64,000 nt of DNA. It comes from a virus (lineage: Duplodnaviria; Caudoviricetes). The notes under the pieces are model-generated. The model worked only from the letters and a program-made list of their open reading frames with translations. It ran no database searches and was not told the origin of the DNA. The DNA lies in IMG/VR virus record IMGVR_UViG_3300026546_000001, positions 94,296 through 158,295 of that record; one strand, written 5' to 3'. Both the position numbers and the translations under genes were made by a program. This document shows, piece by piece, positions 10,819 to 48,612 of this stretch (position 1 is the stretch's first letter; each line of letters opens with the position of its first letter).

Positions 10819-11901
10819 TTACATTTCTTCTATTGAAAAATTTGGTTGTTCATTTCTAATTATTGGAACTACCACTTCTTCACAAAATTCTTTCATATCA
10901 TTAAAATTTACAATAGACATATTATCTTTAGTTGAATGACATAACTGTAATAATTTATAATTTAATTTACCATCTGGTAATCTTGGAAGCGGATTTATAA
11001 CAATACTATCTACACCATATTTTCTTAAAATTATACCATCATGAAATGGTGTAAATAATGTTTCTACACCTGGAAATAATCTTTCTATTCGTTGATATAA
11101 ATTAGATTGTTTATAATCTTCAATGAAGAAATTTTTACCACCAACTGCAGTAAGTTCAAAATTTAAAACAAAATCAATATTACCAAAATATCCTTCATTA
11201 ATTTTTTCAGCTGTTCGTTTTGCGCCAATACCACCAATTTCTTCACCATCTGTTAATACAACATTAATTTCAGGCATTAATGTTTTACATGCAATTGCAT
11301 TAATAACTGATGCAGAATTGTCATTACAATTTTCAGATGCGATATTCATAACATCATGATGTGCCATTATCATTTTATCAGAAGATCCCTTAATATAAAT
11401 ATTAAAAAATGTTCCAGTTGGTTGCTCGCTTAATTTATTCGTTTCTTTTTTAAATTTTATTAACATATTAAGAATACTTTTTTCACGTTTAGATGCATTT
11501 CTATTTTCAGCATTTCTTAACATATGTTTTAACATATTAATATCTAAATCAAACAAATCAAATGCGCGTTTTAATAATCTTTTTTCGTTTTCTTTAAATT
11601 GAGGCGGTATTCTATCATTTTTATCAATTTCTTCATCAACATTATCTTTAGAAAAACCTAAAAAATCACCTAATGTTTTTCTTACAACTCTTCTATCTGT
11701 CCACGTATCTAATTCATATTCAATATTTAATGAATTTAATAAATTCATAATAAATTGAACTCTTGGAGTTGGCTCATCTCCACCGCCACCAGCTTTTGCA
11801 TTATTTTTTGTTGCACAGAAATTTCGCAATATTTCATAATTAAAATTATTATGAATAGATTCTGTTAAATAATTATCGAATGTTTTAATTATTTTAGACA
11901 T
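10819..11901 (-). CDS. M28-family zinc peptidase
   Basis: Motifs in M28 order: AHHD, NDNSAS, TDGEEIGGIGA, LNFE, CHSTKD. Confidence 0.85.
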   Translation of the reverse strand: MSKIIKTFDNYLTESIHNNFNYEILRNFCATKNNAKAGGGGDEPTPRVQFIMNLLNSLNIEYELDTWTDRRVVRKTLGDFLGFSKDNVDEEIDKNDRIPPQFKENEKRLLKRAFDLFDLDINMLKHMLRNAENRNASKREKSILNMLIKFKKETNKLSEQPTGTFFNIYIKGSSDKMIMAHHDVMNIASENCNDNSASVINAIACKTLMPEINVVLTDGEEIGGIGAKRTAEKINEGYFGNIDFVLNFELTAVGGKNFFIEDYKQSNLYQRIERLFPGVETLFTPFHDGIILRKYGVDSIVINPLPRLPDGKLNYKLLQLCHSTKDNMSIVNFNDMKEFCEEVVVPIIRNEQPNFSIEEM

Positions 11902-11929: not shown

Positions 11930-11937
11930 CAAATATA
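11930..11937 (-). promoter_or_regulatory. Bacteroidota-type sigma-A -7 box (TAnnTTTG)
   Basis: TATATTTG on the minus strand ~30 nt upstream of the M28 ATG; the same octamer occurs at 25628-25635 (-) and 27803-27810 (+). Confidence 0.65.
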
Positions 11938-11974: not shown

Positions 11975-12117
11975 AAAGAAACTGGACAGCCGATAAGTCT
12001 CATGCCTTTTAAAACACTTTTGGGACCTTTCGTTGTGCGTCTATGTTATTCAAAATATTATAGAGGCGTGTTGTCCTTGAAGTTTGAGTTCCATCTTCAA
12101 GTTAGTCCAGTTTCTTT
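11975..12117 (-). ncRNA. Structured small RNA candidate, family unknown
   Basis: Intergenic GC-enriched island bounded by a perfect 13-bp inverted repeat (aaagaaactggac / gtccagtttcttt), with internal stems, an AATATATAA motif just upstream (12124-12132) and a U-run downstream. Confidence 0.7.
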
Positions 12118-12146
12118 ATTAAATTATATATTTATATGTTATTATA

Positions 12147-12404
12147 TCAAATTTCTTCTAATTCTAATTCTTTTTCTTTTACTAATTTTAATACTTCTTC
12201 TTTAGTTACTGCAAATCTTGATAACGCAAACCAACTCCATGGAAATAAATCACTATTATCAATTTCTTCCAATTGACAACCATAAATTCCTTGTTGTGTC
12301 ATATATGCTATTTTAATAATAGTATATTCTTGGCCTTTTTTAATCCATCTTGAAGTTGGAATTTCATTAGGTCTATTTTTGTCATCAATACATATTACTT
12401 TCAT
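12147..12404 (-). CDS. Small hypothetical protein (MKVICIDD...)
   Basis: ATG at 12404 overlaps the upstream nuclease stop as ATGA, suggesting translational coupling. Confidence 0.7.
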   Translation of the reverse strand: MKVICIDDKNRPNEIPTSRWIKKGQEYTIIKIAYMTQQGIYGCQLEEIDNSDLFPWSWFALSRFAVTKEEVLKLVKEKELELEEI

Positions 12405-14533
12405 AATATTAAATTCCATTTTAAATTACCTGAATTATATATTCTATAATATCCACGTTCTAACATTATTTCGTGTTCTGTTTTGTTTTTATCAAAACCT
12501 TCTTTTATAAGTTGATCTTTTCTATATTTGAACCTATTTTCACGTATTTCATTTACAACATAAAAATAACCTGGATCAGTTATTTTTTCTAATTTAAAAT
12601 CTAACTTTTCATATAAATTACTATAACCCCAATCTAAATCTTGATACGTAATAATTTTAGCTGGTTTATAATTATAAACAAAATATTTGAATAGTTTATT
12701 TAAACCACCAACTACATGATATTTTTCTACAAAACGATATAATTCATATTCATGTTCTTTAGATTTTTGATTCATTGACTTTCTTAAATTACCAAATCCA
12801 ATAACAGAAACTAATTCATCATTATAAAATAAACCTAATTTAATTTTAGTTACAATTGAACCTTGTAAATGATATGTATTTAAAAATTCCTTGTATTCTT
12901 TAAAGTTTAGTTCTTTAATTTTACATTTTCTAGCATATAAAACTTTTTCTTTATTAAATATTATTTTAAGTCTGTGTTTAATAATATTTTGTTTTAAATT
13001 CCAGTCATCTTCCCATATTTGTATTAATCGAACTCCTTTTTCATATGCTAAATTCAATTTATTTTGATGATAAAATTTATCCTTGAATAATTCACTATGC
13101 CAATATATTCCATTCACTTCAATTGCTATATTATATCTTGGAATATAAATGTCTAGTTCTAAAGGTGAAATTATACTTCTATCATTTTTAATATATTTAA
13201 TATTTAGTTCATCTAAAAATTCACAAATTTTATTATGAAAACTAGAATACGAATTTATTGGATTACAATTAGTACATAATTCAATATTAAATTTGTTTCG
13301 TTGATAAGCAAAATAAGAATTCAAAGTGTATTTTTTATTACATTTATTACATTTAAAAGTTATTTCATGATTATCGTAATCTAAATTAACAATATTATAT
13401 TTTTTAAAACGACTTAATTGTTTGTTTTCCCATTCAATTTTTTGTTTTTCTTTATATTCATTTGATTGATTATAATGTTCAATACCATAACGTTCTAAAT
13501 TAGTTTGTCTAATTTTATTTTGTATTTCTTTAGATTGTAATGGATACTCAACGCCATATCTATCTAAATTAGTTCGCTTTATTTTATCTTGTATTTCTTT
13601 AGATTGATATACATTTTCAACTCCATAACGTTCTAAATTAGTTTGTTTAATTTTATCTTGAAATTCTTTAAGTTGTAACGGATGTTCAACTCCATAACGT
13701 TCTAAATTAGTTTGTTTAATTTTCTTTTTTATTAATTCTGATTGATATACATTTTCAACACCATAACGTTCTAAATTAGTTTGCTTGTTTTTTTCTTGTA
13801 TTTCTTTAGATTGTAATGGATGTTCAACTTCATAACGTTCTAAATTAGTTTGTCTAATTTTATCTTTTATATTTGGATTTAATAATGGATGTGAATAACC
13901 AGTATTTTTTTTGTACGTGTTGAATGTTTTTTGGTGTATATCTTTATTTTTCCATGGATGTTCAGTTCCATGTCTTTCTAAACTTGTCTTTTTATATGTT
14001 TTTTTATATTGATCTATATTTTTTTTAAATGATTTAACACGTTTTTCTAATAAAATTTTACTTTTTGCTGGATTATCAACACCATAATGTTTTATCAATG
14101 TTTGTTTACGTTTTTCCTTAATTTTTTCTTTTTCATCATTTGGTTTATTATTAATTGTTTGGCGCTGTTTATTTTTTATTTCATCTAATTTTTGTGGTAT
14201 TTCAACACCATATCGTTTTAAACTAGTTTGTTTACGTTTTTCCTTAGTATATTTTGAACTACTTTGACATTTATTTGAACAAAATGATAAATATCCTAAT
14301 GTTCTATTTTGAAATTTGACAATATTATTACAATTTTCATTTTTACATATTGGAACACTTGTGACATTATTAATCGTATGCCATACTTTTTGACTAAATT
14401 TTAAATCTTGTAAATTATAAGTGTTACAAAATTCTATAATACTTTGATATATTTCAGGATAATGTTTTTTTAAATATTTTTCTTTTGATAACATACCAGA
14501 TGGATCTGGTTTATTAAATATTGAATAATCCAT
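12401..14533 (-). CDS. Repeat-array nuclease #1 (Hef-like free-standing homing endonuclease: 23-aa repeats, Zn ribbon, Vsr/PD-(D/E)XK, GNAT-like)
   Basis: About 10 KQTNLERYGVE repeats, CxxC pairs, ELDIYIP...IEVNGIYWHS...IQIWEDDW, then YARKC...HLQG...ELYRF...ITYQDLDWG. Directly downstream of the sheath gene. Confidence 0.8.
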   Translation of the reverse strand: MDYSIFNKPDPSGMLSKEKYLKKHYPEIYQSIIEFCNTYNLQDLKFSQKVWHTINNVTSVPICKNENCNNIVKFQNRTLGYLSFCSNKCQSSSKYTKEKRKQTSLKRYGVEIPQKLDEIKNKQRQTINNKPNDEKEKIKEKRKQTLIKHYGVDNPAKSKILLEKRVKSFKKNIDQYKKTYKKTSLERHGTEHPWKNKDIHQKTFNTYKKNTGYSHPLLNPNIKDKIRQTNLERYEVEHPLQSKEIQEKNKQTNLERYGVENVYQSELIKKKIKQTNLERYGVEHPLQLKEFQDKIKQTNLERYGVENVYQSKEIQDKIKRTNLDRYGVEYPLQSKEIQNKIRQTNLERYGIEHYNQSNEYKEKQKIEWENKQLSRFKKYNIVNLDYDNHEITFKCNKCNKKYTLNSYFAYQRNKFNIELCTNCNPINSYSSFHNKICEFLDELNIKYIKNDRSIISPLELDIYIPRYNIAIEVNGIYWHSELFKDKFYHQNKLNLAYEKGVRLIQIWEDDWNLKQNIIKHRLKIIFNKEKVLYARKCKIKELNFKEYKEFLNTYHLQGSIVTKIKLGLFYNDELVSVIGFGNLRKSMNQKSKEHEYELYRFVEKYHVVGGLNKLFKYFVYNYKPAKIITYQDLDWGYSNLYEKLDFKLEKITDPGYFYVVNEIRENRFKYRKDQLIKEGFDKNKTEHEIMLERGYYRIYNSGNLKWNLIL

Positions 14534-18443: not shown

Positions 18444-18509
18444 CTGTAATTAATTAATTTTATTATATATATTTATTTTTTTAAAGATTTTTGTACATAT
18501 TTATATAGT

Positions 18510-23053: not shown

Positions 23054-25069
23054 TTATTGTTTTTTATATATCCATTTTAAATTTCCTGAATTATAAATTT
23101 TATAGTAACCTCTTTCGATCATTATTTCGTGTTCCGTTTTATTTTTATTAAAACCTTCTTTTATAAGTTGATCTTTTCTATATTTGAACCTATTTTCACG
23201 TATTTCATCTTTAAAATATGAATATCCTGGATCAGTTATTTTTTCTAATTCAAAATTTAGTTTTTCATATAAGTTTGAATATCCCCAATCTAAATCTTGG
23301 TAAGTAATAATTTTAGTTGGATTGTATTGTTTAATAAAATGTTTAAATAATTTTGCAAGTCCACCAACGATATGATATTTTTCCGCAAAACGATAAAGTT
23401 CAAATTCATTTTCTATACTATGTTGATTCATAGATTTTCTTAAACTTCCAAATCCAATAACAGACATTAATTCGTTGTTATAAAATAATCCTAATTTAAC
23501 TTTTGTTGCAATATAACCTTGAAGATGGTATTTATTTAAAAATTCTTTGTATTCTTTAGAATTTAGTTCTTTAATTTTACATTTTCTTGCATATAATATA
23601 TTTTCTTTATTGAGTATTATTTTAAGTCTATGTTTAATTATGTCCTGTTTAAATTTCCAATCATCTTCCCATATTTGAATTAAACGAACTCCTTTTTCAT
23701 AAGTTGAATTTAGTTTATTTTGATGATAGAATTTATCTTTATATAATTCACTATGCCAGTAAATTCCGTTTGCTTCAATTGCTATATTATAATCTGGGAT
23801 ATGAATGTCTAATTCTTTAGGACTAATTATATTTCTATCATTTTTAATGTATTTAATATTTAATTCATCCAAAAATTCACATATTTCATTATGAAAATTT
23901 GATGTATAATTTACAAATGGATTACAATATATACAAACATCTCTATTACTTTTATTTCTATAATACGCAAGCCGCCAATTTATTGTATATGTTTTATTAC
24001 ATTTACTACATTTTAATGTAATAGTTTTTTCATCATAGTTAAACGAAATAATATTATAATTATTAAATCGTTTTTGTTGTGTTTGTGTCCAATTTTTAAT
24101 TATTTTTTCTTTATATTCATTTGATTGATTGTAATATTCAACACCATAACGTTTTAAATTAGTTTGTTTTATTTTTTCTTTTACTTCTTTAGATTGATAA
24201 ACGTTTTCAACACCATATCGTTCTAAATTAGTTTGTTTTGTTTTTTCTTGTACTTCTTTTGATTGTGTTGGATATTCAGTTCCGTATTTAGTTAAATTAG
24301 TTTGTTTTGTTTTTTCTTTAAATTCTCCACATTGTACTGGATATTTGACACCGTATCGTTCTAAATTAGTTTGTTTTGTTTTATATTGTATTTCTTTAGA
24401 TTGTACTGGATATTCAACACCATATCGTTCTAAATTAGTTTGTTTTATTTTCTCCTTTATTTTTTCTGATTGATAAACATTTTCAACACCATATCGTTCT
24501 AAATTAGTTTGTTTAACTTTTTCCTGTATATTTTTATTTTGTAATGGTGCTGTTACATTATATCGTTTTAAATTAGTTTCTTTTATTTTCTTTTTTATTG
24601 ATGGATCTTGTGCTGGATTTGAATAGCCAGTTTTTTCTTTATATGTATCAAATGATTTTTGGTGTATATCTTTGTTTTTCCATGGGTGTTCAGTTCCATA
24701 TCGTTTTAAACATGTTTTTTTATACGTTTCTTTATATTGATCTATATTTTTTTTAAATGATTTTACACGTTTTTCTATTGATTTTTTTGAAGATCTTGCG
24801 CATTTAGTAGAACAATATTGTCTATATCCTTTATTTCTATTAATGAAAATGGAATCATTATTACAATTTTCATTTTCACATGTTGGAATATTTGGTATAT
24901 TATTGATAGCATGCCAAATTTTTTGTGAAAATTTTAAATTTTGTAAATTATGTTTATTCGCAAAATTTATAATATTATTATATATTTCTGGATAATTTTT
25001 TTTAATATAAAATTCTTTTGAATATAATCCAGATTTATCTTCTTTGTAAAAAATGCTATAATCAATCAC
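23054..25069 (-). CDS. Repeat-array nuclease #2 (Hef-like)
   Basis: Same architecture as 12401..14533 with about 9 repeats; GTG start; directly upstream of terL. Confidence 0.8.
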   Translation of the reverse strand: MIDYSIFYKEDKSGLYSKEFYIKKNYPEIYNNIINFANKHNLQNLKFSQKIWHAINNIPNIPTCENENCNNDSIFINRNKGYRQYCSTKCARSSKKSIEKRVKSFKKNIDQYKETYKKTCLKRYGTEHPWKNKDIHQKSFDTYKEKTGYSNPAQDPSIKKKIKETNLKRYNVTAPLQNKNIQEKVKQTNLERYGVENVYQSEKIKEKIKQTNLERYGVEYPVQSKEIQYKTKQTNLERYGVKYPVQCGEFKEKTKQTNLTKYGTEYPTQSKEVQEKTKQTNLERYGVENVYQSKEVKEKIKQTNLKRYGVEYYNQSNEYKEKIIKNWTQTQQKRFNNYNIISFNYDEKTITLKCSKCNKTYTINWRLAYYRNKSNRDVCIYCNPFVNYTSNFHNEICEFLDELNIKYIKNDRNIISPKELDIHIPDYNIAIEANGIYWHSELYKDKFYHQNKLNSTYEKGVRLIQIWEDDWKFKQDIIKHRLKIILNKENILYARKCKIKELNSKEYKEFLNKYHLQGYIATKVKLGLFYNNELMSVIGFGSLRKSMNQHSIENEFELYRFAEKYHIVGGLAKLFKHFIKQYNPTKIITYQDLDWGYSNLYEKLNFELEKITDPGYSYFKDEIRENRFKYRKDQLIKEGFNKNKTEHEIMIERGYYKIYNSGNLKWIYKKQ

Positions 25070-47184: not shown

Positions 47185-48612
47185 ATGGCAAAAAGAAGAA
47201 GAACTAAAAAACGAAAAAACGTTGTAAGTACAATTGGTATTGTAGTAGCAAAGGTTTTAAATAGAAATATACCTGAGCCAACTGGCAAAGCGTCAGAACA
47301 TAAACATAATAAAAAAAATAATATACAGCATTATGAAAATACTAAACAAGAAGAAACTAACGAAATTAATAAAAAAACACAAAAAGACAATATCCAAAAA
47401 AATATTGAAAACGAAAAACGAAAAAATGAAATCATTGAAAATATTAATAAAAAAACATCTGAAAAACTTAAAGAATTACAAAAAGAAACAATTAAAATTG
47501 ATCAACAAAAAAACGAAAAAATAGAATTATTAATAATTAAAAAAGAACCAATTGAAGAACCTGAAATTGAAAAACATGAAATTGAAAAACCTGCAATTGC
47601 AGAAGCAGTTGAAGAACCAATTGAAGAACATAAAATTGAAGAACAAATTGAAGAATCAGTTGAAGAACAAATTGAAGAATCAGTTGAAGAACCAATTGAA
47701 GAGTCTGCAATTGAAGAAGTAGTTGAAGAACCAATTGAAGAACCAATTGAAGAGTCTGCAATTGAAGAAGTAGTTGAAGAACCAATTGAAGAACCAATTG
47801 AAGAGTTTGCAATTGCAGAAGTAGTTGAAGAACCGATTGAAGAACCAATTGAAGAGTCTGCAATTGAAGAAGTAGTTGAAGAACCTGTAATTGAAGAACC
47901 AATTGAAGAGTCTGCAATTGAAGAAGTAGTTGAAGAACCAATTGAAGAAACAATTGAAGAGTCTGCAATTGCAGAAGTAGTTGAAGAACCGATTGAAGAA
48001 CCAATTGAAGAGTCTGCAATTGAAGAAGTAGTTGAAGAACCAATTGAAGAAACAATTGAAGAGTCTGCAATTGAAGAAGTAGTTGAAGAACCAATTGAAG
48101 AAGTAGTTGAAGAACCAATTAAAGAAGTAGTTGAAGAATCTGCAATTGAAGAACCAATTAAAGAACCAATTGAAGAACCTGCAATTGAAGAATCAATTGA
48201 AGAACCAATTGAAAAAGTAGTTGAAGAAGTAGTTGAAGAACCAATTGAAAAACCAATTGAAGAAGTAGTTGAAGAACCAATTGAAAAACCAATTGAAGAA
48301 GTAGTTGAAAAACCAATTGAAGAAGTAGTTGAAGAACCAATTGAAAAACCAATTGAAGAACCAATTAAAGAAGTAGTTGAAGAACCAATAATTAAAGAAA
48401 ATAAAAAAGATTTTCATATAAATAATACAAATTTAATACAACAACGTTTTTATAACATGAGTAAATCTAATAATTTTGAATTATATTATAAAAATATAAA
48501 AATATATGATACAGATACATGTAGATTTAAAATAAATTTTGAAAAAGATTATGTTATTATTGAAAATGAAAAATATAGTTATAATCATTTAACTATTAAA
48601 AATAAAAATTAA
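47185..48612 (+). CDS. Glu-rich tandem-repeat protein with a basic N-terminus
   Basis: MAKRRRTKKRK start and about 280 aa of EESAIEEVVEEPIEEPI-type repeats; late motif at 47172-47180. Confidence 0.8.
   Translation: MAKRRRTKKRKNVVSTIGIVVAKVLNRNIPEPTGKASEHKHNKKNNIQHYENTKQEETNEINKKTQKDNIQKNIENEKRKNEIIENINKKTSEKLKELQKETIKIDQQKNEKIELLIIKKEPIEEPEIEKHEIEKPAIAEAVEEPIEEHKIEEQIEESVEEQIEESVEEPIEESAIEEVVEEPIEEPIEESAIEEVVEEPIEEPIEEFAIAEVVEEPIEEPIEESAIEEVVEEPVIEEPIEESAIEEVVEEPIEETIEESAIAEVVEEPIEEPIEESAIEEVVEEPIEETIEESAIEEVVEEPIEEVVEEPIKEVVEESAIEEPIKEPIEEPAIEESIEEPIEKVVEEVVEEPIEKPIEEVVEEPIEKPIEEVVEKPIEEVVEEPIEKPIEEPIKEVVEEPIIKENKKDFHINNTNLIQQRFYNMSKSNNFELYYKNIKIYDTDTCRFKINFEKDYVIIENEKYSYNHLTIKNKN
47545..48390 (+). 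repeat. Coding minisatellite (about 51-bp units built from shorter subunits)
   Basis: gaagagtctgcaattgaagaagtagttgaagaaccaattgaagaaccaatt repeated about 8 times, with degenerate flanking copies. Confidence 0.95.

Follow-up and report, generated by a model that had tools for sequence, protein, structure and literature searches.

What is encoded in a 245-nt gap that stands out by its composition among the tail genes of an AT-rich phage? The window, i.e., the whole stretch of DNA considered here, covers the final 64 kb of an IMG/VR virus record of 158,295 bp, whose completeness is estimated at ~34%. The gap contains a candidate structured RNA. A first-pass annotation described it as a stand-alone late phage RNA of ~143 nt, matching no known class, and proposed pseudoknots and several possible roles. 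The points addressed here are the fold of this RNA, the signals that flank it, the genomes that carry it, and the functions that may be assigned to it.

Genomic context

The record has a GC content of 23.5%. Its terminase (TerL) is 43-48% identical to the terminases of the huge phages LR745206, LR756502, LR756504, and LR756501 (634-735 kb) and ~31% identical to T4-like terminases. The RNA gap lies between a small upstream ORF and a downstream gene resembling M28 peptidases, with tail sheath, fiber-like, and terminase genes nearby.

12401-14533, minus strand: HNH/DUF7487 homing-endonuclease gene, 710 aa, between the sheath gene and the small ORF
12147-12419, minus strand: small ORF, upstream neighbor, 85-90 aa, SH3-like small beta-barrel, no Pfam family
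11975-12117, minus strand: RNA of ~143 nt with a four-way junction, from the MFE fold, its z-score, and covariation in six sequences
10819-11901, minus strand: M28-family peptidase-like gene, downstream neighbor, the handle for finding homologous loci
G000:C1:49535-49881, minus strand, outside the window: phage tmRNA with the tag GKETFAFAA and its own 13-bp terminator hairpin (ARAGORN)

The elevated GC content reported by the first-pass annotation is real. The best 100-nt window of the RNA reaches 40%, compared with 23.5% for the genome and 6-12% for other intergenic gaps of the 158-kb record. Only two GC-rich intergenic islands are present in this record: the RNA gap and the tmRNA gap.

The small ORF adjoins the RNA in all six copies described below and is common elsewhere without it. 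Its fold, predicted with confidence (pLDDT 89), is a small SH3-like beta-barrel and then an acidic helix. The matches of this fold to SH3-like structures are weak (TM ~0.4, E 0.08 or worse) and do not show that the protein binds RNA. Chromosomal homologues of the small ORF occur in Cytophagales and Microscillaceae MAGs, with 62-86% identity to the bacterial member P0134. These homologues hint at Cytophagales as the host order, and the phage host is probably a member of the Cytophagales (Bacteroidota).

The HNH/DUF7487 gene is an insertion peculiar to the window genome; in the homologous contigs L015, L018, and L022, the small ORF directly follows the sheath gene. A paralogue of the endonuclease gene is located at 23054-25069, beside terL. 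The last ~300 nt of the gene (12415-12714) are 84% identical to this paralogue, and the similarity ends at the gene end. Elsewhere in the window, dense arrays of direct repeats with a 12-nt period (families D1 and D3) occupy 47540-48450, inside the ORF at 47185-48612.

Predicted fold of the RNA

The RNA is predicted to be transcribed from the minus strand of the window because several G-U pairs form on that strand and the reverse strand scores 33 bits, compared with 170. The MFE structure is composed of a closing helix and three hairpins.

12105-12117 with 11975-11987, minus strand: P1, closing helix of 13 bp, AAAGAAACUGGAC/GUCCAGUUUCUUU
12076-12101, minus strand: P2, 7-bp hairpin of the MFE fold
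12037-12067, minus strand: P3, longer hairpin, interrupted by a C-C mismatch and a 2x2 internal loop
11991-12032, minus strand: P4, bulged hairpin, loop of 10 nt

The MFE is -39.4 kcal/mol, whereas shuffled sequences average -23.5 +/- 3.4 kcal/mol (z -4.73); none of the 200 shuffles is as stable. Pair probabilities in P1 to P4 are mostly 0.9-1.0. The 13-bp closing helix, the hairpin CUUGAAG/CUUCAAG, and the stem GC-UCUAU/AUAGA-GC had all been recognized in the first-pass annotation, and each is part of the MFE fold at these probabilities.

The three pseudoknot pairings proposed alongside these helices are not supported. AACAC/GUGUU pairs in 88% of cells, yet 59 of 500 shuffles reach that value. 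A U-to-C change that breaks it in L015 and L018 is compensated by an A-to-G change in a competing local apical stem, and the pairing is broken in L079 too. Neither GGAC/GUCC nor the pairing of the loop CUCA with UGAG is supported by covariation, and both compete with helices that do covary.

The unpaired parts are also conserved in the six-sequence alignment. Among 56 unpaired columns, 36 are invariant, and these are concentrated in the junction and in distal P4 (CCCAAAA ... GUUNUAAAAGGC ... GAGAC). The most conserved unpaired stretch is the distal part of P4, which reads CCCAAAA ... GUU(U/G)UAAAAGGC ... GAGAC, with UAAAAGGC as the P4 loop. This region is a candidate functional surface. Conserved junction bases are UAA, (G/A)ACA, AA, and G(C/U)U, and one junction pair, 43-130 (window numbering), is seen as G-C, A-U, and G-U.

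Two coding readings were rejected. A 14-codon sense ORF is broken in the homologues, with a stop codon in L021 (from the alignment), and a 67-aa antisense frame exists only in the window and is broken in the homologues. With no reading frame conserved on either strand, the RNA appears to be non-coding.

Homologues and covariation

Relatives of the locus were reached using its neighboring proteins, i.e., full-length relatives of the M28 protein (54-65% identity) and relatives of the small ORF. The homologous metagenome contigs share the order sheath, small ORF, RNA gap, M28 gene, and fiber-like gene. A model built from the window sequence alone matches the RNA in the gap of L015, L018, L021, and L022 at 117-149 bits. 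A model of five sequences also matches a divergent copy in L078/L079 at 96 bits and a partial copy in L080. The window copy and five further copies in metagenome contigs, all in the same gene context, make up the alignment. The five further copies (96-174 bits) are located as follows.

L015:4768-4911
L018:4053-4196
L021:596-739
L022:4107-4250
L078/L079:569-710

Standard pairs are formed in 93.7% of cells at paired positions of the alignment. Both sides have changed in eight pairs, with at least one such pair in each of P1, P2, P3, P4, and the P4 apical stem. When the partners are slid by one to three columns, only 0-1 double-change pairs are found and pairing falls to 31-44%. In P4, the compensatory pairs are 91-128 and 93-126, with 105-118 in the apical stem (A4 alignment columns). 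Other substitutions are located in loops and junctions.

The window RNA is 86-90% identical to the other copies. Over the same comparisons, DNA identity is 82-84% for the small ORF, 73-76% for the M28 gene, and 59-73% for third codon positions. An identity above that of the M28 gene and of third codon positions fits an RNA whose overall shape matters, although it only modestly exceeds that of the neighboring small ORF. The six sequences represent about three sub-lineages. The covariation is real but shallow, and many of the invariant loop bases may have lacked time to change.

One copy differs from the rest. In L018, a deletion of ~55 nt relative to L015 (L018:4030-4070) joins the small ORF directly to the RNA at its position 12. 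Lost with the deleted bases are the ATATATAA promoter, the P1 5' arm, and the end of the small ORF with its stop codon. What is left of the RNA is 97% identical to L015. The L018 copy is probably decaying; it would have been inactivated recently, or else it is a variant of the assembly. Because promoter and P1 5' arm have been lost, the RNA would be dispensable at least in L018.

Transcription signals

The RNA is flanked by putative transcription signals on both sides, and the M28 gene has a signal of its own.

12124-12131, minus strand: promoter motif ATATATAA within AAATATATAAT, 6 nt ahead of P1
11968-11977, minus strand: U-run UUUUUUUAUU, which overlaps and follows the P1 3' arm
11930-11937, minus strand: TATATTTG, a Bacteroidota-type -7 element of the M28 gene, outside the RNA unit

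An upstream motif and a downstream U-run had been noted before. Both are present: ATATATAA occupies 12131-12124, at a distance of 6 nt from the helix, and the helix is followed by UUUU. The record contains 80 occurrences of ATATATAA; for 37 of them an ATG follows within 40 nt, and sheath, terL, and fiber genes are among the genes concerned. When 150 ORFs are considered, ATATATAA is found at most 80 nt upstream of the start codon in 39 and TAnnTTTG in 15, with none having both. The two motifs appear to be separate, mutually exclusive promoter classes. Examples of ATATATAA in the window are found at 18470, 22997, and 10737, and examples of TAnnTTTG at 11930-11937 and in the 25288 region.

Every intact copy of the RNA has a promoter motif a few bases ahead of P1, which is ATATATAA in four copies and TATATTTG in one lineage. 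In L015, L021, and L022, ATATATAA precedes the RNA start set by the CM by 1-7 nt. In L078/L079, the host-type TATATTTG takes its place, 7 nt before P1. The motifs suggest that the promoter class was swapped in this lineage and that the predicted start at the foot of P1 was retained. The term "late" suits the four copies with ATATATAA; as a fixed property of the RNA it fails, given the lineage with the host-type TAnnTTTG. In the window, ATATATAA overlaps a sigma-70-like match, TTGATA-16-TATAAT (11 of 12 positions, 12123-12150, minus strand), whose -35 half is not conserved among the homologues.

The U-run follows P1 in all six copies, and together they look like a terminator. A standard consensus terminator scan makes no call here; the "loop" of such a terminator is a 117-nt covarying domain of three hairpins. 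The TATATTTG element of the M28 gene is kept in L015, L018, L021, and L022, and a near-copy, TATATTTA, is present in L059, a contig that lacks the RNA. The M28 gene has a host-type element despite its position among late-type genes.

Distribution and the empty site

The outgroup contig L059 carries orthologous genes in the same order, with 59% identity for the sheath, 78% for the small ORF, and 45% for the M28 protein. Its spacer between the small ORF and the M28 gene is 62 nt long and has the near-TAnnTTTG box of the M28 gene. Neither the RNA (by model search), nor ATATATAA, nor a U-run is present in this spacer. Because all three are missing together in L059, promoter, RNA, and U-run would behave as a single unit that the clade acquired or that L059 lost.

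Searches beyond this clade were negative. A covariance-model search of the four complete huge-phage genomes (LR745206, LR756502, LR756504, and LR756501) found no RNA. The RNA is also absent at M28 homologues with ankyrin-repeat neighbors (L016, L017, and L019) and at small-ORF homologues in other contexts (L059-L062). A blastn search of the locus against 50,697 phage records had no match. IMG/VR scans anchored on the M28 and sheath proteins found no relatives, and IMG/VR scans for the exact patterns of two conserved RNA blocks found no matches. Metagenome contigs scanned with GTTTTAAAAGGCNNGAGAC gave 36 stretches, none of which is matched by the model; all are chance occurrences.

Bacterial genomes were chosen from the Cytophagales on the basis of the chromosomal small-ORF homologues in Cytophagales and Microscillaceae MAGs. 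Model searches of five and then 151 such genomes (156 in all) found no relative. The single 28-bit match is at chance level (~2 expected) and has no convincing closing helix.

In L005 (IMGVR_UViG_3300022752_000151), a small-ORF homologue of 43% identity precedes another stretch of ~240 nt that is poor in ORFs (L005:3350-3620). A TATATTTG promoter box stands before this stretch, and a strong terminator (z -2.1) closes it. The stretch matches neither Rfam families nor tRNAs, does not resemble the window RNA, and was rejected as a homologue. It may be another uncatalogued phage ncRNA.

From these comparisons, the RNA appears to belong to a small group of giant Bacteroidota phages and to match no described RNA family. 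The earlier reading, in which this phage ncRNA stands alone between a promoter and a terminator of its own, is well supported by the covarying homologues, the promoter motifs at a fixed distance from P1, the U-runs, and the empty site of L059. That the locus is a real stand-alone ncRNA gene is very probable.

Comparison with known RNAs

Rfam 15 covariance models give no match at gathering score in the window and none on the RNA at E values up to 10, either in the window or in four homologous loci. ARAGORN finds no tRNA or tmRNA in the window; its detection of the tmRNA in another part of the record shows that the program can be applied to this phage. The first-pass statement that the RNA resembles no tRNA or tmRNA stands. 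No reverse transcriptase (RVT_1), Ro60/TROVE, or TnpB gene is present in the 158-kb record, ~34% of the genome; absence from a fragment of this size is weak evidence regarding partner genes.

Two analogies had been offered from bacterial defense. The retron analogy was drawn from the a1/a2 repeats. The 13-bp terminal helix is present and is not specific to retrons, but no reverse transcriptase is found next to the RNA or in the 158 kb. The type III antitoxin analogy fails as well, because neither tandem repeat units nor a neighboring toxin gene are found at the locus.

6S RNA is a rod of ~180 nt with a large central bubble that resembles an open promoter. In its small size, predicted stability, high degree of structure, and paired ends, the window RNA resembles 6S RNAs, including 6S-Flavo. 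It is unlike them in being a 143-nt four-way junction in which each arm covaries, with no central bubble and no Rfam 6S match at E values up to 10, and a 6S-like RNA was rejected.

T4 RNAs C and D (species 1 and 2; rnaC 139 nt, rnaD 119 nt) are small, stable, structured, phage-encoded RNAs of similar length from a related lineage, the terminase of the window phage being ~31% identical to T4-like terminases. Their function is, to our knowledge, still unknown. A search of the T4 region with the model R1 gives best matches of at most 9 bits, none on rnaC or rnaD. RNA C has a tRNA-like T-arm (GGUUCGAAUCC), whereas the window RNA has no T-loop. Both T4 RNAs lie in a tRNA cluster and are processed from it, whereas the window RNA has a putative promoter and terminator of its own among tail genes. 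A relationship was rejected, as neither sequence nor structure is similar.

The phi29 pRNA (RF00044) is a phage RNA in the range of ~120-170 nt whose paired ends close a multi-helix junction, and it lies near packaging and structural genes, as does the window RNA. The pRNA has a three-way junction in place of the four-way junction seen here, and there is no Rfam match. The candidate self-association loop of the window RNA, UUUUAAAA, is not conserved, being UUGUAAAA in L079; the same change weakens a kissing dimer through this palindromic loop, which was set aside. An essential packaging role is unlikely because the RNA is absent from the orthologous locus of L059 and from the four complete related genomes. 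With no match, no conserved loop, and no universal presence in relatives, the pRNA-like reading was rejected.

Y RNAs and YrlA, the partners of Ro60 (Rsr), share with the window RNA a long end-to-end stem, an upper domain with several branches, and a 3' tail rich in U. Ro60 does occur in Bacteroidota, as TROVE was found in the B. thetaiotaomicron control. Unlike Y RNAs, the window RNA has no Rfam Y match, no T-loop or D-loop mimic, and a perfect closing helix that lacks a bulged Ro-binding site, and no TROVE is found in the 158 kb.

A resemblance to the hairpin ribozyme (GUCCAGUUU, AGAAAC) was also rejected. P1 is fully paired, loop A is missing, and there is no Rfam match at E values up to 10, a search that we take to have covered RF00173.

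The closest parallel lies in genome organization. Phage morons, a concept of Hendrix and colleagues, are self-contained units of promoter, gene, and terminator located between conserved late genes. The window RNA likewise forms an autonomous unit between conserved genes of the structural region, with its own predicted promoter and terminator, and it is missing as a block from the syntenic relative L059. Classic morons carry a protein as cargo, whereas the cargo here is a structured RNA.

Possible functions

The proposed course of events runs as follows. In the window phage, transcription would start at the foot of P1, or a few bases from it, from a promoter of the ATATATAA class, which would also drive the sheath, terminase, and fiber genes. 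It would stop at the U-run after the P1 3' arm. The product would be ~140-145 nt long, with paired ends and with the hairpins P2, P3, and P4 radiating from a four-way junction. Promoter, RNA, and U-run would have been gained as one moron-like piece between the small ORF and the M28 gene, in one clade of very AT-rich huge phages. The fold with its compensatory changes, the transcription signals, and the restriction to one clade are direct results of the comparisons, and the transcript and its ends are predicted from the motifs.

The RNA is proposed to act in trans as a folded molecule and would most likely bind a host or phage protein through distal P4 and the junction, with an accessory role in host takeover or counter-defense. 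A trans-acting protein binder is suggested by the constraint on the whole molecule, the lack of an antisense target above chance in the 158 kb of phage sequence, and the insertion character of the unit. This mode of action is plausible and is put forward tentatively. The explanation as a whole, an autonomous structured-RNA gene with a trans-acting accessory role, falls somewhat short of an even chance. Pairing as an antisense RNA and action as a cis signal are considered less likely than action in trans as a folded molecule. The roles suggested in the first-pass annotation, i.e., a decoy, a packaged RNA, or a nuclease partner, are conjectural.

A cis-acting element could take two forms. It could be a terminator or insulator that ends late transcription of the sheath gene and the small ORF, or it could form a structured leader at the 5' end of a late transcript that reads through into the M28 gene; the short "6S" leader RNA between pR' and tR' of phage lambda offers a resemblance. 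P1 and its U-run could serve simply as a terminator, and they are built like the canonical terminators of this phage, e.g., the 13-bp hairpin after the tmRNA. The RNA also always lies just upstream of the M28 gene, which has TAnnTTTG and no ATATATAA. Against this, the three covarying hairpins and the 36 unpaired positions without variation would be superfluous in a terminator, and the standard terminator scan made no call. A promoter directly precedes the RNA in each intact copy and is of a different class in L079, and M28 homologues in other phages, as well as L059, do without the RNA. A cis element is unlikely.

A base-pairing sRNA would use the conserved P4 loop UAAAAGGC, or the P2 loop, to pair with host or phage mRNA. 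Invariant single-stranded loops and a stand-alone architecture with a terminator hairpin and U-tail would suit such an RNA. Complementarity above chance was not found in the 158 kb of phage sequence, and conservation spans the whole molecule and not one seed, which makes this mode of action distinctly unlikely.

A ligand-binding RNA is improbable. It could be a riboswitch-like aptamer that controls read-through, or a free aptamer that soaks up, e.g., an immune signaling nucleotide. The four-way junction with its conserved bases, including the 43-130 pair in its three forms (G-C, A-U, and G-U), would fit, as would an accessory RNA limited to one clade. The perfect 13-bp P1, with the U-run directly after it, would form with or without ligand, unlike a switch helix. 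The M28 gene downstream has its own promoter, and there is no Rfam riboswitch match at E values up to 10.

At the DNA level, the locus could be an insertion resembling a MITE, with the 13-bp repeats as its inverted ends, or it could signal as a cruciform or as single-stranded DNA. Despite the perfect terminal inverted repeats and the presence-absence pattern relative to L059, such an element is very improbable: the locus has a single copy in 158 kb and no convincing target-site duplication recognizable in the AT-rich flanks, the G-U pairs suit one strand only, and the promoter and U-run flank the RNA exactly.

Within the preferred reading of a trans-acting folded RNA, a more specific proposal can be made. 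The RNA could be an RNA-only factor of counter-defense or takeover, i.e., a decoy or sponge for a host immune or RNA-processing protein bound at distal P4 and the junction, or a trap for a signaling nucleotide. It would have been acquired as an "RNA moron" and re-wired between late and early promoters across lineages. This proposal is speculative and decidedly unlikely in its full form.

Significance

Huge phages carry many translation-related and counter-defense genes. Their ncRNAs beyond tRNAs, tmRNAs, and CRISPR arrays are almost unexplored. The RNA described here is a clean case, as it is an autonomous unit, has covariation in every helix, and can be dated to one clade. The exchange of promoter class with the transcript start kept in place is strong evidence that the RNA itself is maintained by selection. 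Although the family is new, its general kind, the orphan phage small RNA, is a familiar one. If it is a protein-binding decoy, the concepts of morons and anti-defense would extend to structured RNAs. If it is not, it would still provide a well-defined new family for RNA databases and a marker for this phage clade.
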